Source: Candidatus Kaiserbacteria bacterium RIFCSPLOWO2_01_FULL_50_24
GTDB lineage: Bacteria; Patescibacteriota; Minisyncoccia; Phycocordibacterales; UBA2100
Reading direction: 5' to 3'
DNA length: 64,000 nucleotides
Assembly: GCA_001783335.1 (NCBI GenBank)
Contig: MFLU01000010.1
Location: 30,122-94,121 of the forward strand
The notes beneath the pieces were generated by a model. That model worked only from the letters and a program-made list of their open reading frames with translations, was not told where the DNA came from and made no database searches. Made by a program: the position numbers and the translations under genes. This document shows positions 6,419 through 31,750 of this stretch, one piece after another. Positions within the stretch are counted from its first letter, which is position 1; every line of letters starts with the position of its first letter.

Positions 6419-7009
6419 ATGTTAAATGCATACACTGAAATGAAAAAAGTTCGCGATGAGGTATTCTCGCTTGACGGCGAATTGGCGGAATATAGAAAAA
6501 AGAATAATTATTTTGCGGTTTTGGGAGAGGGGAGCCACGATGCGAACATTATGTTTATCGGCGAGGCACCTGGTAGAAATGAGGCAAAAACCGGCCGGCC
6601 GTTTTGTGGCGCGGCCGGGCGTATCTTGGACGACCTTCTCCTTTCCATCAACGTGCCGCGCGAGGATGTGTATATTACCAACATTGTGAAAGACAGGCCG
6701 CCGGAAAATCGCGACCCGCTACCGTCTGAAATTGAACTCTATGCGCCGTTTCTAGACCGTCAAATTGATATCATCAAGCCGAAAATACTTGCAACGCTTG
6801 GCAGATTTTCCATGGAATATATCATGCGGAAGTTTGAGCTCGTGTTTGAGCTGGAATCCATCAGCGCGGCCCACGGCAAAATGTACGATGCCTTTGCCTC
6901 GTATGGCGCGATTAAAATCATTCCTCTCTACCACCCCGCCGCCGCCATCTATAATCAGTCTCTCAAAGAAACCCTCAAAAAGGACTTCCAAGAGCTTAAA
7001 ACCCCGTAA
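6419..7009 (+). CDS. Uracil-DNA glycosylase, family 4
   Basis: It carries the GEAPGRNEAKTGRPFCGAAGRILD motif and a C-terminal HPAA segment. Confidence 0.85.
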   Translation: MLNAYTEMKKVRDEVFSLDGELAEYRKKNNYFAVLGEGSHDANIMFIGEAPGRNEAKTGRPFCGAAGRILDDLLLSINVPREDVYITNIVKDRPPENRDPLPSEIELYAPFLDRQIDIIKPKILATLGRFSMEYIMRKFELVFELESISAAHGKMYDAFASYGAIKIIPLYHPAAAIYNQSLKETLKKDFQELKTP

Positions 7010-7766
7010 AACCCTAGAGGCGTCGCCTCTAGGATTTATCAGAACGAACTCTCAGTCTCCGTGTAATAGGTAGCGGCATCACGCAAGACAGATGAAAGTT
7101 TTGGAAGACCGTCTGCCAATATGTTGTATACATTGTCGTCTAATATCGCTCGTTCTACGCGTTCCAATCCGCAGTAGTCCGGCATGCTGGAAAAAGGATA
7201 ATTTAAAAGTTTGTGTTCCAGATTTTTAAAATCAGATACTTTTCCATGTTTCCAATTAGGTTCAAACTTTTCCGCCACATTCAGATGAATATATTGAAGA
7301 ACATGACGTAGGTACGTTTCGTCGTCAACATGCTTGGAACGAAACGGCTTCACAAATATATTGCCGACGCGCGAGCGTTTTTCATTAAAATACATTGCAT
7401 ATCCGGTTCCAAGTTTTTGCATGAATTTGGATATGCCTCTGTCTTCGATCTCTTGCATTAAAATATGGTAGTGGTTTGGCATGAGGGAGTATCCGCCAAT
7501 GGCGACGATATTTTGTTCACGAGGCAGTTGTAAGATATCGTGATGGGGCATATGTTGAAAATTTCCGCGAACAATTGGTTTCGTATCGTTCGACAAGTAC
7601 ATTAGCTCGACGAATCTGTTGCAGTCATCCCCGGTTTCAAAAGTGGTACGTTTGTCAATGCCACGATCAAAGCAGTGATACCACTCGTTGATGGCGAAAG
7701 GAGTGCGTCTATATCCCATACTAACCAACCATAACATAATCCTAGAGGCGTTGCCTCTAGGATTAC
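7008..7766 (-). mobile_element. REP-RAYT-REP unit: an IS200/IS605-like HUH (Y1) transposase gene flanked on both sides by the palindrome cctagaggcg(t/c)(c/t)gcctctagg
   Basis: REP copies lie at 7013-7033 and 7741-7761, a few nt outside the stop (7039) and start (7737) of the transposase ORF. A third copy is at 9657-9677. Confidence 0.65.
7039..7737 (-). CDS. REP-associated tyrosine transposase (RAYT) / IS200-like Y1 transposase
   Basis: The HUH motif LMPNHYHILM and a downstream catalytic-Tyr region (RHVLQYIHLNVAEK) match the Y1_Tnp family. The gene is flanked by REP palindromes. Confidence 0.65.
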   Translation of the reverse strand: MLWLVSMGYRRTPFAINEWYHCFDRGIDKRTTFETGDDCNRFVELMYLSNDTKPIVRGNFQHMPHHDILQLPREQNIVAIGGYSLMPNHYHILMQEIEDRGISKFMQKLGTGYAMYFNEKRSRVGNIFVKPFRSKHVDDETYLRHVLQYIHLNVAEKFEPNWKHGKVSDFKNLEHKLLNYPFSSMPDYCGLERVERAILDDNVYNILADGLPKLSSVLRDAATYYTETESSF

Positions 7767-7871
7767 AGGATTATGCTTTCAACACGCCACACGCGTGGCG
7801 TATTCGGAATCGGGGTTGTATTTTGTGTGTTTTCCTATATAGTGCCGACAGAGAAGAAAGGGAGAAACGAA

Positions 7872-9641
7872 ATGACGGTTGAGGCAACTTGGATTAAGAC
7901 CAAATGGAATCTTGGACTTCTATACGATTCGCTGACGGACCCAAGAATAGAGGAAGATATATCAAAACACGAGCGTGCGTTTGAGGACTTTGAAAGGCGG
8001 TATCGGAACGACACGGCGTATCTTGGAGATGTGGTCGCACTATGTATAGCGCTCCCGGACTACGAGTCTCTCTGGCGCGTGGGTAATTACAAACCCTTAC
8101 GCTATCTGTCGTTTGTAAACACGCTTGATAGCACAAACGCAGAGTGCAAAGCGCTCCAGCAAAAAATCACAGAACGTTTGGTGCGTGCTGGGAATCGCAT
8201 TAAATTTTTCCCGCTATCACTTGGAAAAATTTCCAAAGAAGCACAGGAGGCGTTTCTTGCAAGGGAATTACTGGCGCCGTATCGGTATTGGTTATCAAAA
8301 CTTTTTGAGGAAGCGCGACACAAACTCACAGAGCCGGAAGAGAAAATTCTTGCACTGAAAGCAAATACGTCAAGCGGAATGTGGACTTCGGGCGTGAAAA
8401 ACACCCTCAACAAGCAGGTTATCACGTTTGATGGCACAGAAATTCCTCTCAATGAAGCTGAAGGTAAAGTGTCAACGATACACGATACCGAAAAGCGCCG
8501 CGCCTTGTGGAGTGCGGTCATAGAAGGGTACCAGCGATTAGGTGATTTTGCGGAAAGCGAAATTAACGCCGTGTTCACCGACAAGAAAATCAACGATGAA
8601 TTGCGTGGGTACAAGGAACCGTACGATGCGACAATCCTCGGATACGAAAACAAAAGAGAAAGCGTGCTGGCGCTCGTAAAAACGGTAACCGAGAATTTTT
8701 CGGTAAGCCAGCGATTCTTCGAGGTCAAGTGCCGCATGCTTGCATTGCCGGAATTGACATATGCCGATCGTGGCGTGTCTCCGGGCCGTCAGATGCGTAG
8801 TTACTCATTTACCGAGTCGGTGCGGATTACTGAAAATGCCCTTGACCGCGCAGATCCAAGGTACGGAAACATATTTAGGGATTATCTTCGACACGGACAG
8901 ATAGATGTGTTTCCGCACGCGAACAGAGCTAGTGGCGGATTCTGCGCGGGCACGATAGATCTGCCGACCTTCATTTTCTTGAATCATGCGGACAACTTGC
9001 GCTCCTTGTCTACGTTGGCGCATGAGGTGGGGCACGGCATCCACTATGAACGCTCAAAGGTCCAATCGCCCATGTATCAACAATTTACGATACCGGTCGC
9101 GGAAACGGCCAGCACATTCTTTGAGGGCCTCGCGTTTAACCGAGCGATGAAAGAGATGGATGCGAGTGAGAAAGCGATAGCGCTTCACGAGCGGCTGAAT
9201 GGTGAAATTGCAACCATTTTCCGACAAATCGCCTTCTTTAACTTTGAGGAAGAATTACATCGCGCGGTGCGGGAAGACGGTTGGGTTACCAAAGAGGAAA
9301 TCGCGCGGATGCTCAACAGGCACACGGGGGCCTACATGGGCCCCACGATGAAATTGCGGGACGAAGACGGCTATTTCTTCATCACCGTGCCGCACTTCCG
9401 CTATATGTTCTACGTGTATTCATATGCGTATGGTCAATTGATAAGTCGGGCTCTCGTGCGACGGGTCCAAAATGACTCTGCGTACATCAAGCAGGTAGAT
9501 CGGTTTCTCTCTGCTGGCGGAAGTCAAAAGCCCGAGCACATATTTGCCGACATCGGCATTGAAGTAAACGAGGAGTTTTTCCGCGAGGGCATCGCGGAAA
9601 TTGAAAAAGACCTCTCGGAACTTGAGCAACTGGTTGCGTAA
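7872..9641 (+). CDS. pepF: Oligoendopeptidase F (M3B family metallopeptidase)
   Basis: It has the HEVGHGIH zinc motif and PepF-like length. The start at 7872 has a GGGAG RBS and was preferred over the upstream ORF-track start. Confidence 0.85.
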   Translation: MTVEATWIKTKWNLGLLYDSLTDPRIEEDISKHERAFEDFERRYRNDTAYLGDVVALCIALPDYESLWRVGNYKPLRYLSFVNTLDSTNAECKALQQKITERLVRAGNRIKFFPLSLGKISKEAQEAFLARELLAPYRYWLSKLFEEARHKLTEPEEKILALKANTSSGMWTSGVKNTLNKQVITFDGTEIPLNEAEGKVSTIHDTEKRRALWSAVIEGYQRLGDFAESEINAVFTDKKINDELRGYKEPYDATILGYENKRESVLALVKTVTENFSVSQRFFEVKCRMLALPELTYADRGVSPGRQMRSYSFTESVRITENALDRADPRYGNIFRDYLRHGQIDVFPHANRASGGFCAGTIDLPTFIFLNHADNLRSLSTLAHEVGHGIHYERSKVQSPMYQQFTIPVAETASTFFEGLAFNRAMKEMDASEKAIALHERLNGEIATIFRQIAFFNFEEELHRAVREDGWVTKEEIARMLNRHTGAYMGPTMKLRDEDGYFFITVPHFRYMFYVYSYAYGQLISRALVRRVQNDSAYIKQVDRFLSAGGSQKPEHIFADIGIEVNEEFFREGIAEIEKDLSELEQLVA

Positions 9642-19611: not shown

Positions 19612-20193
19612 ATGACGGAACGGCAAGATGAAGGCGAGCTGTTCTCTAGCGAGGACGGGATAACTGTTGAACCGAGCGAAGAGCTGGGAGAACTTGGCGT
19701 GCTGAAGCAAAAAATACAAAAGCTCAAGGTGGAGCTTGAAGAATGCAAGAAAGAACGCACGGAATATTTGGATGGCTGGCAGAGATGCAAGGCGGATGCT
19801 ATAAACGCGAGAAAAGACAGTGAGTCAAAAGTGGCGCGAAGCGCTGAAATTTTGCGCGAAGCGCTCGTTCACGATATTATTCCCGCACTGGATAGTTTTG
19901 ATATGGCGGCGGGGAGCGAGGTATGGACAGAAGTGAACGATGGCTGGAAAACGGGTATGGAGGCTGTGCGTGACCAGCTTATTGACGCTCTGCGGCGACA
20001 CGGTATTGAGCGATTTGGCAAGGTTGGCGACGTGTTTAATCCTGCGCTTCACGATGTTGCGGAGGAAAAAGACGATGTCGTCGGTGAGGCGGGCAGTATT
20101 GCTATCGTTTTGCGATTCGGGTACAGAGCTGGTGATAGAGTGTTGCGTCCGGCGCAGGTGGTAGTAAAATCTTTAGAAAAGCAAGGAGCGTAG
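19612..20193 (+). CDS. grpE: Nucleotide exchange factor GrpE
   Basis: It has a coiled-coil N-terminus, and the RCKADAINARKD motif resembles the GrpE signature. Confidence 0.85.
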   Translation: MTERQDEGELFSSEDGITVEPSEELGELGVLKQKIQKLKVELEECKKERTEYLDGWQRCKADAINARKDSESKVARSAEILREALVHDIIPALDSFDMAAGSEVWTEVNDGWKTGMEAVRDQLIDALRRHGIERFGKVGDVFNPALHDVAEEKDDVVGEAGSIAIVLRFGYRAGDRVLRPAQVVVKSLEKQGA

Positions 20194-20308: not shown

Positions 20309-22210
20309 ATGTCCAAAATATTAGGTATAGACCTCGGTACCACAAACTCCGCGATTGCGGTGGTAAGGTCAGGCGAGCCTGAAATTATTGAGAACGCTGA
20401 AGGGGCTCGTACGACGCCATCTGTCGTTGCGATCTCAAAAACCGGAGAGCGTTTGGTCGGACTTCTTGCGAAGCGTCAGGCAGTAACGAATCCGAAAAAT
20501 ACTGTTTATCAAATGAAGCGCTTCATCGGGCACATTTTTGACGAACCGGCGGTAGCAAAGGATAGAGAGGCGGTACCGTTTGAAACGCGCAAGTCCGCCA
20601 ACGGCGGCATTGAGATACAAATGGGCGACTCTTCGACAGGCTCAGGGCAAGCTAAGTGGTACCGTCCCGAAGAAATATCCGCAATGGTTCTGCAGAAATT
20701 GAAACACGATGCGGAGGCGCGGCTTGGAGAAACGATTACAGAGGCGATTATTACCGTACCGGCGTACTTTAACGATTCTCAACGACAAGCAACGAAAGAC
20801 GCGGGGCGTATTGCCGGTCTTGACGTGAAGCGAATAATCAATGAGCCGACCGCCGCGGCGCTCGCGTATGGTTTCAACAAAAAGAAAAACGAAAAAATAG
20901 TTGTATTTGACTTTGGTGGCGGCACGTTTGACATATCCGTTTTGGAAGTCGGGGATGATGTGATAGAGGTTCGCTCTACTGATGGCGATGCACATCTTGG
21001 CGGCAAAGACGTGGACCAGAAAATAATGCACTGGCTTGCGGATGAATTTAAAAGAGAGTCTGGAGTGGATGTGCGCAAAGACCCGCTAGCGCGCCAGCGT
21101 TTGGATGAGGCGGCGGAAAAGGCCAAAATTGAACTCTCTACGGCGCTTGAAACGGAAGTAAATATTCCGTTTATTACCTCTACTGATGCCGGCCCCCAAC
21201 ACCTTCTTATCAAATGTACGCGAGCGAAACTGGAGGAACTCACGGAAGAGTTTATTGAACGAGCCGTTCTTATAACGAAACGCGCGATGGACGCATCGCC
21301 ATTCAAGGTTGGCGATATACACGAGGTGATACTTGTGGGTGGGCAAACACGCATGCCGGCTATCCAAAAGGCGGTTGAGGGGATTTTCGGAAAAAAACCG
21401 CACATGGGTGTGAATCCGGATGAGGTGGTGGCAATTGGCGCCGCGATACAGGGCGGCATCATGCAGGGGGATGTAAAAGACGTTTTACTTTTGGATGTCA
21501 TTCCGCTCTCACTCGGCATTGAAACGCTTGGCGGCGTGGCGACAAAACTCATTGAGCGCAACACGACTATCCCCACGTCGCGTTCGCAGGTGTTTTCAAC
21601 CGCCTCAGATAACCAGCCGTCGGTGGAAATTCACGTGGTGCAGGGCGAGCGGCCCATGGTCACAGATAATAAATCACTCGGGAGGTTTAATTTAGACGGC
21701 ATTCCGCCGGCGCCTCGCGGAACACCGCAAGTTGAAGTGTCCTTTGATATTGATGCGAACGGTATATTGAGCGTAAAAGCACGCGACAAAACAAGCGGCA
21801 AGGAGCAGTCCATCCGCATTGAAGCATCCTCGGGACTTTCCGAAGCGGATATTAAAAAAATGAGGCAGGATGCCGACGCGCATGCCGACGAGGATAAAAA
21901 GAAACGCGAACTTATTGAAGAGCAAAACGCCGCTGACCAGATTGTATATGCCGCCGAAAAAGCGCTCAAAGAACACGGCGACAAGGTGGGCGATGACATT
22001 AAGAAAAACGTGCAGGAAAAAATAGACGCCGCTAAAGCGGCACGCGGCGGCACAGATACGGCCAGCATAAAATCCGCTGCCGAGGCGCTCTCGCAGGCGA
22101 TGAGCGCAATCGGCCAAGCGATGAGTCAACAGCAAAATCAACCGCCGAAAGAAGGAGGTGAACAATCGTCTTCGAACGGGGATCAGCCGCCGTCCGCAGA
22201 ATCTAAATAA
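20309..22210 (+). CDS. dnaK: Chaperone DnaK (Hsp70)
   Basis: It carries [16 protein letters not shown] and the other Hsp70 signatures. Confidence 0.97.
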
Positions 22211-22218
22211 CATCGCGC

Positions 22219-23292
22219 ATGAAGAAGGACTATTACGACATACTCGGCGTCCATAAAGGAGCGAGCGAGGAGGAAATAAAAAGTGCATTTCGCAAGCTCG
22301 CGCATCAGCATCATCCTGATAAAAAGGGGGGCGACGAGAGTCGTTTCAAGGAAGCATCCGAAGCGTATGCGGTTTTGGGTGACAAAAAACGCCGTGCGGA
22401 ATACGATACGTATGGCCGAACATTCGCGGGCGGCGCTGGCGCGGGCGCAAGCGGATTTTCCGGATTTGATTTTTCGCAGTTTACACAAGATTTTGGCGGA
22501 GGTGGAGGCGTGGAGTTTGACTTCGGCGATGTGTTCTCGGAATTTTTCGGCGGTTCACACCGAGCAGAGTCGAGGGGCCGAGACATCTCCATAGACATTG
22601 AACTTTCATTCCGCGAGAGCGTTTTCGGTACCGAACGTCGCGTTCTAATAGCAAAAGTGGGAGTGTGTGACGTATGCAAGGGAAGTGGCGCTGCTGCCGA
22701 CTCTAAAAAGCACACTTGCAAGGCCTGTAACGGTAAGGGTGAAGTGCGCGAAACACGCTCTACCTTCTTCGGACAATTCACGTCGCGCAGAGTTTGTGCC
22801 GAATGTCGTGGAAAAGGCGAGATGCCGGATGCGCTGTGTGCGGTATGCCGCGGTGCGGGAGTCTTGAAACGCGAAGAAGAAATCCGTATAACCGTACCCC
22901 ACGGTGTTTCAGACGGCGAAATGATACGCATGCCGAAGATGGGCGAAGCGATAAGCGGGGGAGAAACGGGTGATTTGTATGTAAAACTGCACGTGACGCC
23001 AGATCGGGCGTTCTCGCGCGAGGGCAATAATATCCTCATGTCGCTTTCCATTAAACTCACCGATGCGCTCCTTGGCACGGAGTATAAAATTCAAACGCTT
23101 GACGGCGAAGAAAAAGTGCATATTCCGAAAGGGGTGGCTCACGGGGAACTTATTCGCATCAAAGAGCTTGGCGTACCTTATGGACGAGGAAGTCGCGGCG
23201 ATTTATTGGTGCGTATTTCAATAGGACTCCCTAAAAAACTGTCGCGTGAGGCACAAGAGTTGATTGAACAACTTAAAAGAGAAGGATTATAA
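22219..23292 (+). CDS. dnaJ: Chaperone DnaJ
   Basis: It has a J-domain with HPD, a G/F region and four CxxCxGxG zinc-finger repeats. Confidence 0.95.
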   Translation: MKKDYYDILGVHKGASEEEIKSAFRKLAHQHHPDKKGGDESRFKEASEAYAVLGDKKRRAEYDTYGRTFAGGAGAGASGFSGFDFSQFTQDFGGGGGVEFDFGDVFSEFFGGSHRAESRGRDISIDIELSFRESVFGTERRVLIAKVGVCDVCKGSGAAADSKKHTCKACNGKGEVRETRSTFFGQFTSRRVCAECRGKGEMPDALCAVCRGAGVLKREEEIRITVPHGVSDGEMIRMPKMGEAISGGETGDLYVKLHVTPDRAFSREGNNILMSLSIKLTDALLGTEYKIQTLDGEEKVHIPKGVAHGELIRIKELGVPYGRGSRGDLLVRISIGLPKKLSREAQELIEQLKREGL

Positions 23293-23304
23293 TACCACTG
23301 ACGT

Positions 23305-23455
23305 AATAAATAACAAATTACAAACCTCAAATTCCAAACAAATTCAAATAACCGAAATCACAAATTCAAAACTGGTACGTCGTGTTTTGTATTTAGTAAT
23401 TAGAATTTAGATATTTTGATATTTTTTGTGATTCGGTACTTGGAATTTGGTGCTT
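23305..23455. repeat. Family-C intergenic repeat (inverted relative to the copy at 30271)
   Basis: It contains ggtacgtcgtgttttgtatttagtaattagaattt, the reverse complement of the segment at 30310-30345. Confidence 0.75.
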
Positions 23456-23530
23456 TTTAGAAATTTGTAACCACTTGTAGTATTCGTATCATTTGCAGAT
23501 CGGCCATAATTTTCGTAGTAGTATATTGCC

Positions 23531-24013
23531 ATGGACTCCCTACCCATCAGCGAATGGCTTCCTTTTGTCACCATGGATTGGTTAATCCTCGGCGGCCTTG
23601 TGGCACTCGTTGGCATTGATTCACTTCGGAGCGGCTCGCGCCGCGCTGCGGCGCTTGCTCTCGCATTTCCAATCGCCGCGCTGCTTCACATCTCCATCGG
23701 AAGTGCGCGGGGTGTCGGAGAGCTTGTGGTGTCTCTTGGCGCAACGGGACAGACGATTGCCTTTCTAGTACTCGCTCTTGTGCTATTCTTTTCTTTCACA
23801 CGATTTACCGACTCTTACGATGGAGGAGGCTTTCTTCACGCGGCTCTCGTAGGGGTAGCAACTACAGTCGTTGTCATAGTCTCGTGGCTTAGCGTCCCGC
23901 CACTTTTAGAATTCTGGCAGCCGAATGCCGTAATTATAGCTCTATTTGGCGAAACATACCGCTTCTGGTGGCTTTTTGCCGGACTCGTCACCCTGTCTTT
24001 TGTACGTAAGTAG
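23531..24013 (+). CDS. CvpA-family (colicin V production-like) membrane protein
   Basis: It has four TM helices, and the N-terminal pattern DWLILGGLVALVGIDSLRSG is typical of CvpA. Confidence 0.45.
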   Translation: MDSLPISEWLPFVTMDWLILGGLVALVGIDSLRSGSRRAAALALAFPIAALLHISIGSARGVGELVVSLGATGQTIAFLVLALVLFFSFTRFTDSYDGGGFLHAALVGVATTVVVIVSWLSVPPLLEFWQPNAVIIALFGETYRFWWLFAGLVTLSFVRK

Positions 24014-24044
24014 CCAATTGCTCCAGAGCTGATCCTATACAAAC

Positions 24045-24073
24045 TTGTATTTTCAGTTAAGTAGTGTTATAAT
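24045..24073 (+). promoter_or_regulatory. Sigma70-like promoter (TTGTAT - 17 nt - TATAAT) directly upstream of the PaaK-like gene
   Basis: The -10 box ends 2 nt before the ATG at 24076, so the real start may be the in-frame ATG at 24082 and the mRNA may be leaderless. Confidence 0.45.
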
Positions 24074-24075
24074 AT

Positions 24076-25554
24076 ATGCACATGGTACTAAAAGAATTGC
24101 GTACGCACACATCTGATATGTGGTCTAAGATTCAAACTAAGTACATGTGCACTTTGTTCACACGAGCTGCGAAACGTGTTCCCGCATACGCGCGTTTTCT
24201 AAGAAACAGTAAAGCGCATCAACGAACTCCAACGGCACAAACATTTCTTGCAATCCCGCCAATCACAAAAGACAATTATCTTCGAAAATCTTTATTCCCC
24301 GATTTATTTTGGGATGGGGTAATCAGTTCGCCCCACATGCTTACAGCGACTTCTGGCTCGACGGGGAAACCTGTGTACTTCGCACGCTCTCACTCGGTAA
24401 ACGATCAGTCATCCGCCATCCATGAACTGTTCTTTACTTCGTGCTCGCTTTCCTCAAAGAAATCAACACTCGTTATTGTGTGTTTTGGGATGGGTGTATG
24501 GATAGGTGGTTTCATTACGAGCGAGGCGTTTGAACTTATGGGCCGGCGCGGCTATCCGGTTGCCGTAATAACTCCGGGACTTAACAAGCAAGAAATTTTT
24601 AAGGCGCTAAAGCAGTTGGCGCCGCAGTACGAACAGCTTATTATTGCCGGCTATCCGCCATTTGTTAAAGACGTGCTCGATGAGGCCGAAGAAAATGGTA
24701 TCTCTATACGAAAACACAAAACAGCACTCGTGTTTGCAGCCGAAGCATTCACGGAATCATTTCGTGAATACGTTGCAAAAAAAGCGAATGTGCGAAATGT
24801 TTTGACAGACACAATGAACATTTACGGGAGTGCAGATTTGGGGACCATGGCGTTTGAGACGCCCGTGTCCATACTTATCCGACGACTTGCATGTAAACAT
24901 CCCGATCTTTTCCGAGCCCTATTTGGTGGAACAGATAAAACACCGACGCTTGCGCAGTACATCCCACACTTCACATCCTTTGAGGCATTGAAAGGCGAGT
25001 TATTGGTAACCGGAGACAGCGCGACGCCACTCATACGATATGCGATAGGAGATCGCGGCGGCGTGTACACCTATGATGAAATTTCAAGCATATGCAAAAT
25101 GCACGGCGTACATCTTACAAAAGAACTTGCCCGCGCGGGTATCGCGACAAAAACCGCTAAGCTACCGTTTGTGTTTGTCTACGAACGTCTTGACCTCTCC
25201 ACAACACTATACGGCTTGCAGATATATCCGGAGATTATTCGCGAGACATTGCTCCAGAGTGGATTTGTACAACGTCTAACGGGACGCTTAACGCTTGTAA
25301 CAAAATTTGATGATCGTCAAAATCAATATCTGGAAATAAACGTTGAACAACGGCGTGGGGCAGAAGTTGAAAAAGCGCTTGCCGCAAAGTTAAAAGCGGA
25401 GATCGTAAAAAACTTAAAACTAAAAAGTGCAGAATTTTACGAGCTCTCCTTGCATCTCGGCGAACGTACAGAGCCGCGACTCATATTCTGGCCGCATGAA
25501 GACCCTACATACTTTCGGCCGGATACGAAACAGAAATGGGTCGTGAAGTCTTAA
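24076..25554 (+). CDS. PaaK/F390-synthetase-family adenylate-forming enzyme (phenylacetate-CoA ligase-like)
   Basis: It has the AMP-binding motif TSGSTGKP and PaaK-like length and layout. Confidence 0.7.
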   Translation: MHMVLKELRTHTSDMWSKIQTKYMCTLFTRAAKRVPAYARFLRNSKAHQRTPTAQTFLAIPPITKDNYLRKSLFPDLFWDGVISSPHMLTATSGSTGKPVYFARSHSVNDQSSAIHELFFTSCSLSSKKSTLVIVCFGMGVWIGGFITSEAFELMGRRGYPVAVITPGLNKQEIFKALKQLAPQYEQLIIAGYPPFVKDVLDEAEENGISIRKHKTALVFAAEAFTESFREYVAKKANVRNVLTDTMNIYGSADLGTMAFETPVSILIRRLACKHPDLFRALFGGTDKTPTLAQYIPHFTSFEALKGELLVTGDSATPLIRYAIGDRGGVYTYDEISSICKMHGVHLTKELARAGIATKTAKLPFVFVYERLDLSTTLYGLQIYPEIIRETLLQSGFVQRLTGRLTLVTKFDDRQNQYLEINVEQRRGAEVEKALAAKLKAEIVKNLKLKSAEFYELSLHLGERTEPRLIFWPHEDPTYFRPDTKQKWVVKS

Positions 25555-25564
25555 AATCCACGCT

Positions 25565-26599
25565 ATGCCAGAAAAATTCAGTGCAGAGACGTATAAAAAA
25601 GATTTTGAGAGTAAAGATTCGTGTAACGCTCGCATTAAGCATATTTTGTCGTATGCTATCCGTGCGCCGTCTACGCACAACAGTCAGCCGTGGAAGTTTA
25701 TCCTCACGGGAAATCGACTATCTATTATCAACGACGAGTCGATACGGTTGCCGAAAAGTGACGCACTCGGACGCTATCGGCACATTAGCTTTGGATATCT
25801 TATTCATCATATCGTGTTGCTTGCGGCGTACAGTGGCACGCAAACGATGACGCGACTTGGGCGAGCGCCGGTTATTGCAGAAATAGAGTTCCACACACAG
25901 CATGGAGTTTTTGACGTTACCATCGCTCCGTTAATAAACGCCTTGTGCTCCAGGCGGAATCGCCGCGGTATATTTGAGCGCGACAGTGCGATACCACACA
26001 ATACGCTTGAGGCGGCGTCTGCACGTTCTCCACTTTTTCCCGCCGCACTAGCAAAGCCGGAATGCGCCATCGCGAGTGGGAGAACAGTTGCATGTATTGC
26101 ATCATGCACGGCCGAGGGCATGCGGCGAGCGTATCGCTCAAATGCGTTCCGTCGAGAAATGGCCTCATGGATTACACCAACAGGCTCATGGAGAAAAACA
26201 GGTATTCCCGGCTATTCGCTGAACCAGCCCGCGATACTTTCGTGGCTTTTGCCGAACATTATTCGTTTTATAGACATTGGAAGATTTCTCTCAAAGTTAA
26301 ACGTCACGTCTATTTCTTCCGCACCATGTGTATTTGGATTCGCCGGAGACGACACGGTTTCTTCATGGATTGGAGTTGGTTTTCAGGCATCACATACGGC
26401 ACTTACGCTCACTGCCGCAAGATTTGACGTTTCTGTATATGTAGCGGCCATGGAGTATGACGATACGCGCCGAGAGGCGGGACGCGCATTCGGATTTTCC
26501 CATCCGCTCCAATTTTTATTTGCAACCGGCGCACTTAAGGGCAATGTGTCGTGGTGCACTCCTCGTGTCCCCGTATCGCAAAAACTCACCGAGCGTTAA
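25565..26599 (+). CDS. Tandem nitroreductase-fold protein (Acg-family-like)
   Basis: The N-terminal motif AIRAPSTHNSQPWKF is the nitroreductase signature. At 344 aa it is about twice the single-domain size, as in Acg-type proteins. Confidence 0.6.
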   Translation: MPEKFSAETYKKDFESKDSCNARIKHILSYAIRAPSTHNSQPWKFILTGNRLSIINDESIRLPKSDALGRYRHISFGYLIHHIVLLAAYSGTQTMTRLGRAPVIAEIEFHTQHGVFDVTIAPLINALCSRRNRRGIFERDSAIPHNTLEAASARSPLFPAALAKPECAIASGRTVACIASCTAEGMRRAYRSNAFRREMASWITPTGSWRKTGIPGYSLNQPAILSWLLPNIIRFIDIGRFLSKLNVTSISSAPCVFGFAGDDTVSSWIGVGFQASHTALTLTAARFDVSVYVAAMEYDDTRREAGRAFGFSHPLQFLFATGALKGNVSWCTPRVPVSQKLTER

Positions 26600-26624
26600 T
26601 ACGGTCGTACGGTACAATAGTGAA

Positions 26625-27668
26625 ATGGGAAAGGCATCGCTTATTACCATACGTTCGTTTGGCGGTGAGCCCGAACGAGATGCATACGTACGTTCTCTGA
26701 AAGAGCGCCAGATTTCGTACCATGATCTCTACGATATGCAGTGTGCGGAACTTGCGGAAATTCGCGACCCCCGCTCATTCGGAAAAAAGCCGCTTCCCCT
26801 TACGTCTCTGCCCGACGATAGGATAGTTGAGTATCCGTGGCGTAACACGGCAATTCGCACAGTTGAACTACACGCTTTTTCAGAATTGCGCACCGCAAGA
26901 AACCACAACCTTATTACTCCAGAGGAGCAGTCTATTTTTGCGACTTCGCATATTGCATTTGCAGGTCTAAACGTTGGCAATCCGGGAGCCGTGTGCGTGG
27001 CGCTTGAAGGTGGCGCGCGCTCCATGTCGCTTGCGGACCCGGACATTCTTTTAACGGCGAATCTCAACAGATTTCGTGCGGGATTGCCGGATGTCGGTCT
27101 GAACAAGGCGGAACTCACGACACGACAAATACTTGAAATAGACCCCTACTACACCCTCTCCGTCTCAGCCGAAGGATTGACGTCCGGTTCGCTCATGCAA
27201 TTTCTCTCTGAACCGAAAGCGCGAGTGCTTGTAGAAGAAATGGACGCTCTGCCGCTGAAACTTTTTATCCGGGACGAGGCGCGAAAGCTTGGGGTACCGG
27301 TTGTTATGGTGACGGGTATCGGAGATGGCGTGCTTCTTGATGTTGAGAGGTATGACCTTGACCGTAATACGCCGCTTCTCAACGGCTTACTTGACCGAGC
27401 GGTTGAGGACGCTATTCGTTCCGCCGAGTCAATGTCGCCGGAAAAAAAGATAAAACTTGCCCATGATTTCATCGGAACTTCATATCTCGAACCGCGCCTG
27501 AATGATTCGTTTGCAGAGATAGGAAACACTCTCGTGGGCATTCCGCAAATAGCCGAGTCGTCGTTTATGCGTGGCGCCGCCATCGCGCGAGCGGTGCGGA
27601 CCATTGTGTGCGGTGGGAACATGCCCTCCGGACGTTACTCGTTTTCTCTATCTCCATGCCTGAAGTAG
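26625..27668 (+). CDS. ThiF/MoeB/E1-like adenylyltransferase-family protein
   Basis: The Rossmann and E1 signature HIAFAGLNVGNPGAVCVALEGG...ANLNRF matches VxGxGxxG...SNLNRQ. Confidence 0.6.
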   Translation: MGKASLITIRSFGGEPERDAYVRSLKERQISYHDLYDMQCAELAEIRDPRSFGKKPLPLTSLPDDRIVEYPWRNTAIRTVELHAFSELRTARNHNLITPEEQSIFATSHIAFAGLNVGNPGAVCVALEGGARSMSLADPDILLTANLNRFRAGLPDVGLNKAELTTRQILEIDPYYTLSVSAEGLTSGSLMQFLSEPKARVLVEEMDALPLKLFIRDEARKLGVPVVMVTGIGDGVLLDVERYDLDRNTPLLNGLLDRAVEDAIRSAESMSPEKKIKLAHDFIGTSYLEPRLNDSFAEIGNTLVGIPQIAESSFMRGAAIARAVRTIVCGGNMPSGRYSFSLSPCLK

Positions 27669-29251
27669 TAAATATAGACCTTATGCTCGTTGGTGCCGCT
27701 GTGGCGGGTGCCGCAATGCTTGCGCTTGTGGTATACGTATCCAACTCGCGCTCCGCCACAGCACAAGCGCTTCTTTTATACTCCGCGGTAACGATTGGCT
27801 GGAGCTTGGCAAATTTCATCAGCTACCGCCTAACCGATGAAGTGCATATCCTTTGGGCAATACGCCTCGTCCTTTTCTTTGCTTCGTGGCACGCATATGC
27901 ATTTTTGCTTCTAGCTCTAGAATTTCCGAACAAGGTGAACAAAACAAAAGGATGGGCTCTTGCGGCGCTTGCGGGATGGACTGGTCTTGTTTCTGCGCTC
28001 GTTATGACTCCGTTTGTATACGAACGGGTGATCTTCATCGGTCCATCCTCCATAGAAACCTCGGTGGGATGGGGAATTATTGTGTTCGGCTCGACAGTGC
28101 TCGTATATGTCTCGGCAGGCGTCGTATTTCTTGCACAGAAACTACTACGAACGAGCGGGGTAGAGCGGCGGCAGTACGAATTTGTGTTCGCGGGAGTTGC
28201 AATCACCTTTTTCTTTATTCTTACGTTCAACTTTATTCTTCCAGCCTTTTTTAATATTGCCGACCTTATTCCGTTTGGCGGATTATTCCAACTTCCGCTT
28301 ATAGCACTTACTGCATATGCGATTCTCCGACACCATCTCTTTAATGTGAAAATAGCCGCTACCGCGCTACTCATATTTATTCTTTCTGTAATCAGTGTTT
28401 CCGAGATTATTGTCGCCGAGGACACCGCAATCATGGTGTTTCGTATCGTGATTTTCCTTCTCATTTTGCTTTCCGGCGCGCTCCTTATACGCGGTGTATA
28501 TAAAGAAATATCACAGCGTGAACTCATAGAAGCGCAAGAGAAGGAGCTAGAGCTGGTGAATCGTGAGCAGGAGGCGCTTTTGCACTTTTTGAGTCATGAG
28601 GTGAAGGGGTATTTGGCAAAAGGCGAAGCGGGGTTTGCGGCTATTATAGACGGCGCCTATGGCCGCGTCTCGGAAGGTCTTGAAACAATGGCGAAACTCG
28701 CACTCCAAGAGATGCGCGCCGGGGTAGGGGTAGTGATGGGTATTTTAGATGCGTCAAATTTGAAAAAAGGCACGGTGTCGTATAAAAAAGAACCTTTTGA
28801 TTTTAAAAAGATTGTGGAAGCGATCGTGGGTGAAATGCGCACATCGGCAGAAAAGAAAGGCCTTCAGCTCTCGCTCACCGCGCCCGAAGGCGTGTATACC
28901 GTGATGGGGGACGATGAGAAACTCCGTCAGCATGTCGTTAGAAATCTTATCGGTAACTCCATTACCTACACACCATCCGGAAGCGTGTCGGTATTTCTCG
29001 GCGGCAAAGGGGGAAGGGTGCGTATGGTGGTTGAAGATACCGGCGTCGGCATTTCACCGGAGGATATGGAGAAACTTTTCACCGAAGGCGGACATGGTCA
29101 GGATTCCATCAAAGTAAACGTGCATTCCACGGGCTTTGGTCTTTACATCGCAAAGCAAATCGTGGAAGCACATGGCGGCAAAATCTGGGCGGAGTCCGAG
29201 GGCGTAGGAAAGGGCTCGCGGTTCGTGATTGACTTGCCAACTGCGGCGTGA
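27656..29251 (+). CDS. Sensor histidine kinase with a multi-TM (about 7 helices) N-terminal sensor domain; no cognate response regulator nearby
   Basis: It has a HisKA H-box (FLSHEVKGYL) and an HATPase region (GTGFGLYIAKQIVEAHGGKIWAESEGVGKGSRF). The ATG at 27656 overlaps the upstream stop by 13 nt. Confidence 0.8.
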   Translation: MPEVVNIDLMLVGAAVAGAAMLALVVYVSNSRSATAQALLLYSAVTIGWSLANFISYRLTDEVHILWAIRLVLFFASWHAYAFLLLALEFPNKVNKTKGWALAALAGWTGLVSALVMTPFVYERVIFIGPSSIETSVGWGIIVFGSTVLVYVSAGVVFLAQKLLRTSGVERRQYEFVFAGVAITFFFILTFNFILPAFFNIADLIPFGGLFQLPLIALTAYAILRHHLFNVKIAATALLIFILSVISVSEIIVAEDTAIMVFRIVIFLLILLSGALLIRGVYKEISQRELIEAQEKELELVNREQEALLHFLSHEVKGYLAKGEAGFAAIIDGAYGRVSEGLETMAKLALQEMRAGVGVVMGILDASNLKKGTVSYKKEPFDFKKIVEAIVGEMRTSAEKKGLQLSLTAPEGVYTVMGDDEKLRQHVVRNLIGNSITYTPSGSVSVFLGGKGGRVRMVVEDTGVGISPEDMEKLFTEGGHGQDSIKVNVHSTGFGLYIAKQIVEAHGGKIWAESEGVGKGSRFVIDLPTAA

Positions 29252-29328
29252 CACCCTGTTTCTCGAAAGTTAAGGAGAAAAATTTCGGCCAAGTACAAGA
29301 TGTGCTTGGCCGCTTCGTTTGCTATAAT

Positions 29329-30270
29329 CTACCAATGCAACGACTCTTGACCGGACTTCAGCCCTCGGGCGCGCTTCACATCGGGAATTATTTTGGAGCG
29401 TTGAAACCGTTCGTTGATTTGTATGGCGACTACGAGAGCTCTCTTTTGGTGGTGGATTACCACGCTCTGACGACGCTCAAAAACCCAGAGGAACTTCGGC
29501 AGAACATTGTGAACGTGGTGAAGGATTATCTCGCAGTTGGTGTGGACCCGAAGAGGGCGACCATTTTTAAGCAATCGGACGTACCGGAGCATACGGAACT
29601 TGCGTGGATTTTTGAGACGCTCGTTACCGTGCCGTTTTTGATGCAGGCGCACGCATATAAAGACAAGGTGGCGAAAGGGCTTGAAGCGAATGCCGGACTT
29701 TTCAACTACCCAATGCTCATGGCGGCAGACATTCTTTTATACGACATTGACGTAGTGCCGGTCGGCGCCGATCAGCGTCAGCACATTGAATATGCGCGCG
29801 AAGCGGCGGCGAAGTTTAACGAAACATTCGGAGAAACATTCAAAGAGCCGAAAGAGCGCATTTTGGAATCAGTTGCGACCGTTCCGGGCACGGACGGGCA
29901 AAAAATGAGCAAGAGTTATGGCAACACCATTCCTCTTTTCGGAACAAAAGATGAAATCGCGAAAGCGGTGATGAGTATTGTTACCGACTCGTCCGGCGAG
30001 AGCCCAGAGCACGTATACAACATTCACTCGCTTTTCAAAGAGAGGGGAGAGCTTGGGGCGCTATACAAGGCAAATAAGGGAAACTACAAGGCGAGCAAAG
30101 AGGCGCTCGTTGAGGACATTGAAGCGACGGTTGCTCCTATGCGCGAACGCCGTGAATCAATTTCAGACGACGAGGTGCGCACCGTACTTGCCGAGGGGGC
30201 AGAGAAAGCGCGCGAGCGCGCGAGTAAAAAAATGACCGAGGTGCGGAAGAAGATTGGTGTTATGATTTAA
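29329..30270 (+). CDS. trpS: Tryptophanyl-tRNA synthetase
   Basis: It has the HIGH-class motif GALHIGNY and KMSKS. Confidence 0.9.
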   Translation, partial: LPMQRLLTGLQPSGALHIGNYFGALKPFVDLYGDYESSLLVVDYHALTTLKNPEELRQNIVNVVKDYLAVGVDPKRATIFKQSDVPEHTELAWIFETLVTVPFLMQAHAYKDKVAKGLEANAGLFNYPMLMAADILLYDIDVVPVGADQRQHIEYAREAAAKFNETFGETFKEPKERILESVATVPGTDGQKMSKSYGNTIPLFGTKDEIAKAVMSIVTDSSGESPEHVYNIHSLFKERGELGALYKANKGNYKASKEALVEDIEATVAPMRERRESISDDEVRTVLAEGAEKARERASKKMTEVRKKIGVMI

Positions 30271-30410
30271 AATCCCAAGCACCAAGCACCAAATCACAAA
30301 CAATATCTAAATTCCAATTACTAAATACTAAACACGACGTACCCATTTTGAATTTGTTATTTCGGTGATTTGAATTTGTTTGGAATTTGTTATTTGTAAT
30401 TTGGAATTTA
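30271..30410. repeat. Family-C intergenic repeat
   Basis: See the entry at 15640. Confidence 0.75.
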
Positions 30411-30412
30411 TT

Positions 30413-31750
30413 ATGTCAAGTATGGAACGTACTCTCATAAAAAATCTCTCGGAAAATATCGGGAAAGCCGTCTCGGTAAGCGGCTGGGTATCGGTACGGC
30501 GCGACCAGGGAAAACTCGTATTTTTTGAGATTCGCGACCGTTCTGGAAGCGTACAGGGGGTGGTGTTGCCAAAGTCCGATGCCATTGAGGCGGCAAAGGG
30601 GGTGCGCCCGGAGTATGTCGTTTCCATATCAGGCCAAGTGAATAAACGACCGGAAAAAAATGTGAACCCGAATGTACAAAATGGCGATATTGAGCTTGAG
30701 ATACAAGAAATTGAGATACTTTCTAAAGCGGAGACACCGTTTGAGCTTGGTGCCGAGCTCAACCTTGATACCTATTTAGACCATCTGCCATACACCGTAC
30801 GCTCGCCACGGGCGCGAGATATTTTTGCCCTGCAGGCGACCATCATAGAGGCGTTTCGCGACTCGCTCCGTAAACGCGATTTCGTTGAATTTCAGGCACC
30901 GGCAATCGTAGGAGGCGATGCCGAGGGTGGCGCCGCCGCGTTTAAGGTTGATTACTACTACGACCAAAAGGCGTACCTTGCCACAAGTCCCCAGCTCTAT
31001 AAGCAGATCATGGTTGGCGCGTTTGAGAGAGTATTCACAACACCGAAGATTTGGCGGGCGGAAAAACACGCTACCCCCCGCCATCTTTCCGAGCTCACAC
31101 AAATGGATTTTGAGATGGGATTCATCAAAGACCATTTTGATGTGATGGATGCGCTTGAAACCACCATGCGTGATGTGGTAGCGGTCGTGCGCCACAAGCA
31201 CGCCGACGCACTTCAGCGTTTCAATGTTGAATTGCCCAAGCTTCCTAATGAGAAGTTTCCGATACTCAAACTGAAAGAGGCGCAAGAGTTGCTCGGCGTA
31301 CCGCATGAGCCAGATCTTGAACCCGAGCAGGAACGACTGCTTCACGAGTGGGCGCTTAAAGAGCACGACTCAGATTTTGTTTTTGTAACACATTTTCCTA
31401 CATCCAAGCGTCCGTTCTATACATATGAAGACCCGGAAGATTCCGGCCATACACGTTATTTTGACCTGCTTTTCCGCGGGCTCGAAATAAACTCCGGTGG
31501 TCAGCGCGTGCATGAGCACGATGTGCTTGTGGAACGCATTAGACAAAAGGGGTTAGACCCGGAAAAATTCGCTTTTTATTTGCAAACATTCAAAGTGGGC
31601 ATGCCACCTCACGGCGGGTGCTCCACTGGCCTAGAGCGCTTAACTGCGCGCATGTTGGGACTTGCAAACATTCGTGAAGCCACTCTCTTCCCGCGCGATA
31701 TGACCCGTATTGACGCTCGCTTATCGGAAAATACGGAAGAAGAAACATGA
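30413..31750 (+). CDS. aspS: Aspartyl-tRNA synthetase, archaeal/short class IIb type (an AsnRS assignment cannot be excluded)
   Basis: It has an OB-fold N-terminus, class II motifs (FRAEDxxxxRH-like, GGCSTGLERL), and a length of about 445 aa. Confidence 0.85.
   Translation: MSSMERTLIKNLSENIGKAVSVSGWVSVRRDQGKLVFFEIRDRSGSVQGVVLPKSDAIEAAKGVRPEYVVSISGQVNKRPEKNVNPNVQNGDIELEIQEIEILSKAETPFELGAELNLDTYLDHLPYTVRSPRARDIFALQATIIEAFRDSLRKRDFVEFQAPAIVGGDAEGGAAAFKVDYYYDQKAYLATSPQLYKQIMVGAFERVFTTPKIWRAEKHATPRHLSELTQMDFEMGFIKDHFDVMDALETTMRDVVAVVRHKHADALQRFNVELPKLPNEKFPILKLKEAQELLGVPHEPDLEPEQERLLHEWALKEHDSDFVFVTHFPTSKRPFYTYEDPEDSGHTRYFDLLFRGLEINSGGQRVHEHDVLVERIRQKGLDPEKFAFYLQTFKVGMPPHGGCSTGLERLTARMLGLANIREATLFPRDMTRIDARLSENTEEET

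Follow-up and report, generated by a model that had tools for sequence, protein, structure and literature searches.

A conserved four-gene cassette of Patescibacteria combines a candidate oxazolone-type pathway with a seven-transmembrane sensor kinase

The cassette, its conservation and its surroundings

The locus described here lies on contig MFLU01000010.1 of Candidatus Kaiserbacteria bacterium RIFCSPLOWO2_01_FULL_50_24, a member of the Patescibacteria or candidate phyla radiation (CPR); we refer to the whole stretch of 64,000 nucleotides (64 kb) that was analyzed as the window. Four consecutive genes on the same strand encode a PaaK-fold adenylate-forming ligase, a flavin-dependent oxidase (FDO), a stand-alone ThiF-like protein and a seven-transmembrane (7-TM) sensor histidine kinase (Table 1). 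An earlier note, made from the sequence alone, had singled out the first three genes by their motifs. We confirmed the open reading frames (ORFs) and the motifs, and recovered the folds by profile and structure searches. Of the two gaps given there, the 25 nt between the FDO and ThiF-like genes is correct, while the 11 nt between the ligase and FDO genes should read 10 nt. The kinase gene does overlap the downstream end, by 13 nt when counted from the ATG at 27656, which alignment with orthologs indicates as the probable start in place of the GTG at 27608. Close relatives of the window proteins are nearly all found in metagenome bins of the Paceibacteria/Parcubacteria type.

We collected 80 genome loci seeded with the ThiF-like protein, 56 of which were informative because they extended at least 4.5 kb on both sides. 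Of these 56 loci, 54 showed linkage of the ligase and ThiF-like genes, 54 had the FDO gene together with the ThiF-like gene, and 54 had the kinase gene next to the cassette. All four genes occurred together in 52 (54 when a variant with an acyltransferase, described below, is counted). In the opposite direction, metagenome loci were retrieved through the kinase sensor domain alone, using an alignment of 5 sequences, and 39 of the 47 loci with at least 4.5 kb upstream contained all four genes. This arrangement is far beyond chance, and synteny in both search directions makes the kinase a genuine part of the unit. The synteny across related genomes on which the earlier note had staked its proposal is thereby borne out.

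At least four gene orders were observed (ligase-FDO-ThiF-kinase, FDO-ThiF-ligase-kinase, ligase-ThiF-FDO-kinase and ThiF-ligase-FDO-kinase). The cassette often lies downstream of the dnaK operon, and in many loci the four-gene unit has outlasted its aminoacyl-tRNA synthetase (aaRS) neighbors. Since the gene orders are permuted, the linkage is not wholly a matter of frozen macro-synteny with the dnaK operon. The cassette is widespread, occurring in many Patescibacteria lineages with genomes well under 1 Mb, and loci L070 and L079 come from complete genomes of 680 and 984 kb.

A census with profile hidden Markov models covered 160 related loci (L001-L160). In about 45 of them a dehydrogenase gene of the Glu/Leu/Phe/Val (ELFV) family lies directly upstream of the ligase gene, whatever the order of the other genes (for example, L022 8986-10026, L018 4169-5230 and L080 5255-6388). 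Among named proteins, its closest relative is ScyB, a tryptophan dehydrogenase (1e-78, below cutoff), and the gene is absent from the window and its lineage. Other occasional inserts in the ThiF-seeded loci encode S-adenosylmethionine-dependent methyltransferases, a second kinase paralog, an M19 dipeptidase and an alpha/beta hydrolase. Such tailoring-type accessory genes in subsets of loci fit the nature of a metabolite gene cluster.

Several close relatives also carry 3-6 kb of unrelated genes between the ligase and FDO genes or between the ThiF-like and kinase genes (L001 2980-4592, L002 3244-4817, L009 585-2169, L030 4196-5023 and L049 8974-9768), which indicates that the cassette tolerates insertions. 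These inserts include paralogous minus-strand proteins of about 250-280 aa with an N-terminal helix-turn-helix-like region, TrmB-like by eye only, and a protein of about 600 aa.

Upstream of the ligase gene lies a gene for a 160-aa membrane protein, which the earlier note had assigned to the CvpA family and furnished with a promoter-like site of its own. Neither part of this claim could be upheld. The protein has no Pfam or NCBIfam match at E ≤ 0.1, and its gene is not kept beside the cassette in related genomes; we therefore excluded it from the system. Shuffled sequence contains promoter-like and terminator-like sites at least as often as the surroundings of the cassette, and for this reason we claim no operon boundary beyond the weak hairpin just past the kinase stop codon. 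This hairpin is probably intergenic, since the nominal GTG/TTG start of the tryptophanyl-tRNA synthetase (TrpRS) gene is likely too far upstream, ortholog alignments beginning only at about residue 21-33. The same holds for the start of the aspartyl-tRNA synthetase (AspRS) gene, where alignments begin at about residue 9-17. Later starts leave genuine intergenic gaps (29248-29335 and 30380-30420), which hold the hairpin and the second arm of an inverted repeat.

The two arms of this repeat, each of 150 nt and 81-86% identical, lie at 23299-23448 and 30269-30418, in the dnaJ/membrane-protein and TrpRS/AspRS intergenic regions. Within the 64 kb its 33-nt core occurs at these two sites only, against a chance expectation of 0. 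The arms bracket 6.8 kb that comprise the membrane protein, the cassette with its kinase, and TrpRS. They could delimit an invertible or recombined segment or represent a shared regulatory element; no comparable inverted repeat was found in the sister loci.

Table 1. Positions of the cassette genes and neighboring features in the window
Feature	Position	Strand	Length	Basis or remark
grpE	19612-20193	+		
dnaK	20309-22210	+		
dnaJ	22219-23292	+		
Membrane protein	23531-24013	+	160 aa	no family assignment
PaaK-fold adenylate-forming ligase (ANL superfamily)	24076-25554	+	492 aa	AlphaFold model and Foldseek
Single-chain, double-length nitroreductase-superfamily FDO (Acg type)	25565-26599	+	344 aa	profile matches
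ThiF-like ATP-dependent cyclase, Rv1355c/TrzS type, stand-alone (predicted)	26625-27668	+	347 aa from MGKAS start	profile matches
Polytopic 7-TM sensor histidine kinase	27656-29251 (nominal ORF 27608-29251)	+		Pfam domains
Hairpin with 12-bp stem, just past kinase stop codon	29286-29312	+		terminator-like site; possible transcription-unit end, weak
TrpRS	nominal 29248-30270	+		true start probably later
AspRS	nominal 30380-31750	+		true start probably later

The three enzymes

The ThiF-like protein contains IAFAGLNVGNPGAV and ANLNRFRAG and matches the general family PF00899 (1.7e-6). Its strongest match is to positions 24-335 of PRK07877, the model of the 'Rv1355c family' (E 6e-73, 246 bits), and the next-best ThiF/MoeB/TcdA model reaches 1e-12. 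The full-protein cutoff of PRK07877 (476 bits) is missed because only one half of a fusion protein is present. Equivalog models of ThiF, MoeB and TcdA score 16-36 bits against cutoffs of 159-450 (27 bits against 304 in the case of TcdA), and for the ThiF/MoeB models taken as a group the cutoffs span 152-633. With such scores and no carrier gene nearby, the protein is not a canonical MoeB or ThiF beside moaD or thiS, an outcome that the earlier note had weighed against its own proposal.

Alignments of 16 and 72 orthologs revealed a set of invariant or at least 90% conserved motifs: the AGLNVGNPGA Rossmann loop, N146-L-N148-R149-F-R151, K161 and E204-E205-x-D207, as well as G114 and G118. The motifs align with the nucleotide/ATP-site motifs of TcdA. 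Because they are kept, the protein is predicted to be an adenylating enzyme rather than a degenerate docking scaffold. D207 would be the adenylation Asp, corresponding to D217 of TrzS, the enzyme encoded by Rv1355c; the correspondence is drawn through the shared ThiF motif and not from a direct alignment with TrzS.

The ThiF fold could also be read in another way, given that among solved structures TcdA comes closest in sequence and that TrpRS and AspRS genes lie downstream, both in the window and at several related loci. The protein might activate a ubiquitin-like or sulfur carrier of the ThiS/MoaD kind, as E1 enzymes do, or act as a TcdA-like dehydratase forming cyclic N6-threonylcarbamoyladenosine in tRNA, in association with the neighboring aaRS. 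We regard this as very improbable, given the equivalog scores far under their cutoffs, the loss of the aaRS neighbors in many loci where the four-gene unit stays, and the lack of a small ORF with a Gly-Gly end, be it in the window or as a conserved feature of the ThiF-seeded genome loci. Matches to E1 proteins in PADLOC are likewise weak and at the level of the Rossmann fold, and on the same grounds we rejected a role in anti-phage defense of the E1-E2 or CBASS-like type.

The FDO contains RAPSTHNSQPW and matches NF047509, the Acg family FMN oxidoreductase, over positions 2-317 of 319 (E 4e-40, 138 bits; cutoff 199). As this match spans the full length, the FDO is of the double-length single-chain type that the earlier note had proposed, and not a single-domain NfsA or NfsB. 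The best PDB sequence match is Acg itself (2YMV, 2e-6), and a weak match was found to positions 363-563 of PRK07877 (E 1.5e-9, 36.7 bits). The residues conserved in at least 90% of 58 orthologs are A34-P35-S36-T37-H38-N39-x-Q41-P42-W43, R130 and R134. By analogy with oxazolone synthetases, we propose that the FDO acts as a C-alpha/C-beta desaturase.

In the synthetases for thiazole/oxazole-modified microcins (TOMMs), the C component is an E1-like protein and the B component a nitroreductase-fold protein, and the presence of both folds in tightly coupled genes had led the earlier note to an analogy with such ribosomally synthesized and post-translationally modified peptide (RiPP) systems. The E1-like protein would dock a precursor, the nitroreductase-like protein would oxidize azolines and the ligase would activate a peptide carboxylate. 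The analogy did not survive closer analysis, and we consider RiPP machinery extremely improbable. As the earlier note had itself observed, neither a YcaO protein nor an obvious precursor peptide is found in the window cassette. YcaO is equally missing among the clustered recurrent extra genes of the ThiF-seeded loci, where no small ORF or Cys/Ser/Thr-rich peptide is conserved either. A scan for the Gly-Gly-ended or peptide genes that the earlier note had thought might lie close by returned only out-of-frame noise, both over 23000-29400 and in the cassettes of the 80 ThiF-seeded loci. TOMM docking proteins have lost the adenylation motifs that the ThiF-like protein keeps. The FDO is an Acg-type single chain with no SagB-type model among its NCBIfam matches at E ≤ 0.1, and the closest family is that of Rv1355c/TrzS.

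This family has recently been characterized. Kleetz et al. (2025) showed that TrzS is a fusion of a ThiF cyclase and an FDO, which converts N-acyl-tryptophan into N-acyl tryptazolone in vitro with ATP and O2, by ATP-dependent cyclization followed by O2-dependent desaturation (PMC12856293). The acyltransferase TrzA (Rv1356c) supplies the substrate, and the TrzAS system is found in Mycobacterium tuberculosis, M. smegmatis and Rhodococcus (PMC12856293). Grigg et al. (2023) described a split version (Rv2336-Rv2338c), in which TyzB is the ThiF-like protein, TyzC the FDO and TyzA the acyltransferase (PMC10404671). The first such enzyme was OxzB of Pseudoalteromonas rubra, which works with the acyltransferase OxzA (De Rond et al. 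2020, bioRxiv 10.1101/2020.06.11.147165). By homology, the window appears to encode an oxazolone synthetase divided into its two halves, each a protein of its own, and we think it quite likely that the ThiF-like protein and the FDO are a cyclase/desaturase pair acting on an N-acylated amino acid.

The ligase contains LTATSGSTGKPVYF and the P-loop TSGSTGKP. It has no Pfam match, including to the AMP-binding family, and no PDB sequence match; the NCBIfam PaaK model covers its N-terminal half only (E 6.5e-9, 34.9 bits against a cutoff of 700). Its AlphaFold (AF2) model, with a predicted local distance difference test (pLDDT) score of 81.5, is that of a PaaK-type two-domain enzyme of the ANL superfamily. 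The Foldseek neighbors of this model are BT_0428, PaaK2, NatL2, AjiA1, ClxA, 2-hydroxyisobutyryl-CoA ligase (HCL) and the amide-bond synthetase McbA, with E of about 1e-14 to 1e-12 for PaaK2, BT_0428, NatL2 and AjiA1 (PaaK2 2y4o, 9e-15). NatL2, AjiA1, ClxA and McbA join an acyl-adenylate to an O or N nucleophile and need no CoA for this. At least 90% conserved in 67 orthologs are S93, G94, S95, G97 and P99 of the P-loop, Y250 and G251, Y322 and D326, and K485, the putative C-terminal catalytic Lys as assigned by position without structural superposition. The neighbors of the ligase are the FDO, the ThiF-like protein and the kinase, with no paa catabolic genes.

A proposed pathway and its alternatives

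Our proposal, which we hold to be likely on balance, is that the three enzymes together build a small molecule by a route of the oxazolone (azlactone) type, with the chemistry of OxzAB, TyzACB and TrzAS. In the first step, the ligase would adenylate a carboxylic acid and then acylate an amino acid on its amino group. The resulting N-acyl amino acid would form either straight from the acyl-adenylate, with no need for CoA, or by way of a CoA thioester. The acid may be a 2-oxo or aryl acid derived from an amino acid, since the ScyB-like dehydrogenase encoded next to the ligase at about 45 of the 160 loci is of the Trp/Phe/Leu type. In the second step, by homology to the characterized enzyme, the ThiF-like protein would adenylate and cyclize the carboxylate of the N-acylated amino acid. 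In the third, again by homology, the Acg-type FDO would desaturate the C-alpha/C-beta bond to yield a conjugated oxazolone. Of the uncharacterized activation and oxidation module envisaged in the earlier note, the conserved module stands and a metabolite fits as its substrate; a peptide or a ThiS-like carrier does not.

The assignment of the first step to the ligase draws on a rare CPR variant of the cassette without the ligase gene (L055 7408-13797, L058 7809-12546, L078 7431-10584 and the P0248 contig). Here the order is response regulator, ThiF-like protein (TrzS-like, with an AGLSVGSA loop), a protein of the FeeM/acyl-homoserine lactone (AHL) synthase fold, FDO and 7-TM kinase. The protein between ThiF and FDO is 326-430 aa long, has no family assignment and only 14 database relatives. 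For TyzA, too, the reported structural neighbors are FeeM and a CoA-dependent AHL synthase (PMC10404671). These sister cassettes, with an acyltransferase-fold protein and no ligase, suggest that the ligase is a functional replacement of the acyltransferase. The canonical architecture and a ligase-based one thus coexist among CPR bacteria, and a kinase of one type accompanies either. The FDO of L055 carries a fused methyltransferase-like domain of about 300 aa, and one variant contig has a gene for an AMP-binding acyl-CoA synthetase after that of the kinase.

Beyond the CPR, Gordonia oryzae (NZ_RKMH01000004.1, locus L057, 6512-8963) has a stand-alone TrzS-like ThiF gene immediately preceded by a PaaK-like gene. 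The PaaK-like gene is apparently split by a frameshift (6512-7429 and 7345-7932), and the ThiF-like protein is 40% identical to that of the window. An FDO gene is missing within 8 kb, and the genes that come next encode LuxR-type regulators and an AMP-binding ligase.

The product could be a different heterocycle or activated small molecule instead of a classical N-acyl oxazolone. In one version, the ligase and the dehydrogenase could build an alpha-ketoacyl or aryl conjugate and the ThiF-like enzyme could close another ring; in another, a reactive saturated azlactone could be left as an acyl donor, with the FDO performing a different redox step. An acyl-supplying enzyme unlike that of all characterized systems, the ScyB-like dehydrogenase next to the ligase gene, the Gordonia pair and the weak similarity of the CPR FDO to the FDO half of TrzS would all suit such a product. 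They have to be set against the strongly TrzS-like ThiF protein and the sister cassettes with a FeeM/AHL-synthase-fold protein, which reproduce the canonical three-enzyme oxazolone architecture, and we judge this alternative improbable.

Several points weigh against the oxazolone reading and against the role of the kinase in it. To our knowledge, the synthesis of N-acyl amino acids for an oxazolone-type pathway is without precedent in the PaaK family, and a FeeM/AHL-synthase-like N-acyltransferase such as OxzA, TyzA or TrzA is absent from the window. The ligase-ThiF pair may have a chemistry of its own, as Gordonia keeps the pair without an FDO. The FDO, which scores below the curated cutoff and matches the TrzS half weakly, could belong to the uncharacterized, Acg-like FDO-B branch rather than to the oxazolone-associated FDO-A. 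Known FDOs use O2, and many CPR bacteria live anaerobically. The neighborhood of the dnaK operon, TrpRS and AspRS is in part macro-synteny and inflates the apparent linkage somewhat. Concerning the kinase, linkage shows co-inheritance and not the identity of a ligand. As the earlier note had remarked, it comes without a response regulator: tblastn searches with CheY, PhoB and NarL found no receiver domain in the window. Receivers do occur beside the kinase or ThiF gene in some sister loci (L024, L028, L033, L055, L067, L070 and L078).

The kinase itself has a HisKA_7TM domain (PF16927, 5.7e-12) and a HATPase_c domain (PF02518, 3.5e-25) and keeps the His box SHEVKGYL. The travel of the cassette almost everywhere with a membrane sensor kinase suggests that the product is a signal. 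In a fourth step of the proposed pathway, the 7-TM kinase may sense the lipophilic product or control its production, the whole forming a synthase-plus-receptor unit. The possible sensor-kinase control raised in the earlier note is thus upheld as regards membership of the unit, while sensing and control are suggested by linkage. That the kinase is the receptor of the pathway product is possible, although we rate it as doubtful.

The kinase may equally be a mere neighbor, or a transcriptional regulator that responds to an unrelated cue such as envelope or proteotoxic stress, with the enzymes making a protective or antimicrobial lipid. The oxazolone loci of M. tuberculosis are tied to stress phenotypes, and antibiotics induce oxazolones in proteobacteria (PMC12856293). 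In the CPR loci, the cassette often follows the dnaK-dnaJ-grpE neighborhood, and response regulators follow the kinase in some cases. On the other hand, the linkage outlasts four gene orders, the loss of the dnaK and aaRS neighbors and a search seeded with the kinase. Such a role for the kinase, which is compatible with steps one to three of the proposed pathway and differs in the fourth alone, seems to us conceivable but unlikely.

Carried to its full extent, the proposal would describe a chemical-communication system of CPR bacteria, in which an oxazolone-type autoinducer is sensed by a co-inherited 7-TM kinase and serves cell-cell or symbiont-host signaling. We put this forward only tentatively and consider it rather unlikely as a whole. 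If true, it would provide the first defined physiological role for oxazolones, the first widespread CPR signaling molecule and an example of a PaaK-family enzyme as a CoA-independent N-acyl amino acid synthase. Most of these organisms are uncultured episymbionts, so that a signal/receptor pair conserved among them would also bear on how hosts are found or addressed.

Oxazolone natural products were found only in 2020-2025, and their physiological role is 'a major unresolved question' according to the authors who described them (PMC12856293). The cyclase/oxidase chemistry is therefore already known. New are the ligase-based entry, the dehydrogenase partner, the near-obligatory kinase and the wide distribution in Patescibacteria, of which our literature search returned no prior description; the supplement of the TrzAS paper contains no CPR terms. 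A kinase gene as neighbor is mentioned neither in the TrzAS paper nor in the OxzAB preprint (term search) nor in the available part of the Tyz paper. The occurrence of the cyclase/oxidase pair extends beyond proteobacteria and actinomycetes, and the cassette is conserved in tiny Patescibacteria genomes, where almost no specialized metabolism is expected. In these genomes a PaaK-fold ligase, often with a ScyB-like dehydrogenase, appears to stand in for the acyl-CoA-dependent N-acyltransferase. Its near-obligatory coupling to a kinase makes both the idea that 'oxazolones are signals' and the question 'what are oxazolones for?' experimentally approachable.

Comparison with known systems

Among synthase and receptor pairs, the luxM-luxN and cqsA-cqsS loci of Vibrio have an autoinducer synthase gene beside the gene of a polytopic sensor kinase. 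The window resembles them in that the gene for a putative synthase of a lipophilic small molecule adjoins that for a multi-pass membrane kinase without an extracytoplasmic domain. The chemistry differs, and the comparison is one of arrangement, in which the signaling role at the window is suggested by linkage alone. The resemblance of N-acyl oxazolones to AHLs has been pointed out in the oxazolone literature (PMC12856293).

The ligase shares the two-domain PaaK fold and the TSGSTGKP P-loop with PaaK1/2, NatL2, AjiA1 and ClxA. In contrast to PaaK1/2 and to the enzymes of benzoxazole pathways (NatL2, AjiA1 and ClxA), to which it is 14-18% identical, it is about 60 residues longer, has no Pfam match and is found in neither a paa nor a benzoxazole context.

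TcdA, the tRNA t6A cyclodehydratase, is the closest solved structure to the ThiF-like protein by sequence (2e-15 with the family profile). Its type of reaction, the ATP-dependent cyclodehydration of the carboxylate of an N-acylated amino acid, is the one proposed here. The ThiF-like protein differs from TcdA in additional N-terminal (about 90 residues) and C-terminal (about 110 residues) regions, which are common to the Rv1355c family, and no tRNA-modification partners are present.

TyzACB and OxzAB are tyrazolone pathways. The ThiF protein TyzB and the single-chain FDO TyzC are encoded side by side, as in the window, and the CPR variants L055, L058 and L078 resemble these systems also by their FeeM/AHL-synthase-fold protein. 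The window differs from them in having no such acyltransferase, and the acyl donor is probably not a beta-oxidation acyl-CoA.

TrzAS differs from the window in its actinomycete rather than CPR host and in the fusion of the two activities in TrzS, which the window encodes as two proteins in the gene order FDO, then ThiF. Where TrzAS has the acyltransferase TrzA, the window has the PaaK-fold ligase, and its unit includes a 7-TM kinase. What the two systems have in common is a ThiF-like protein, predicted in the window to be an ATP-dependent cyclase with the adenylation Asp kept, together with an Acg-like flavin oxidase, both apparently devoted to one small molecule.

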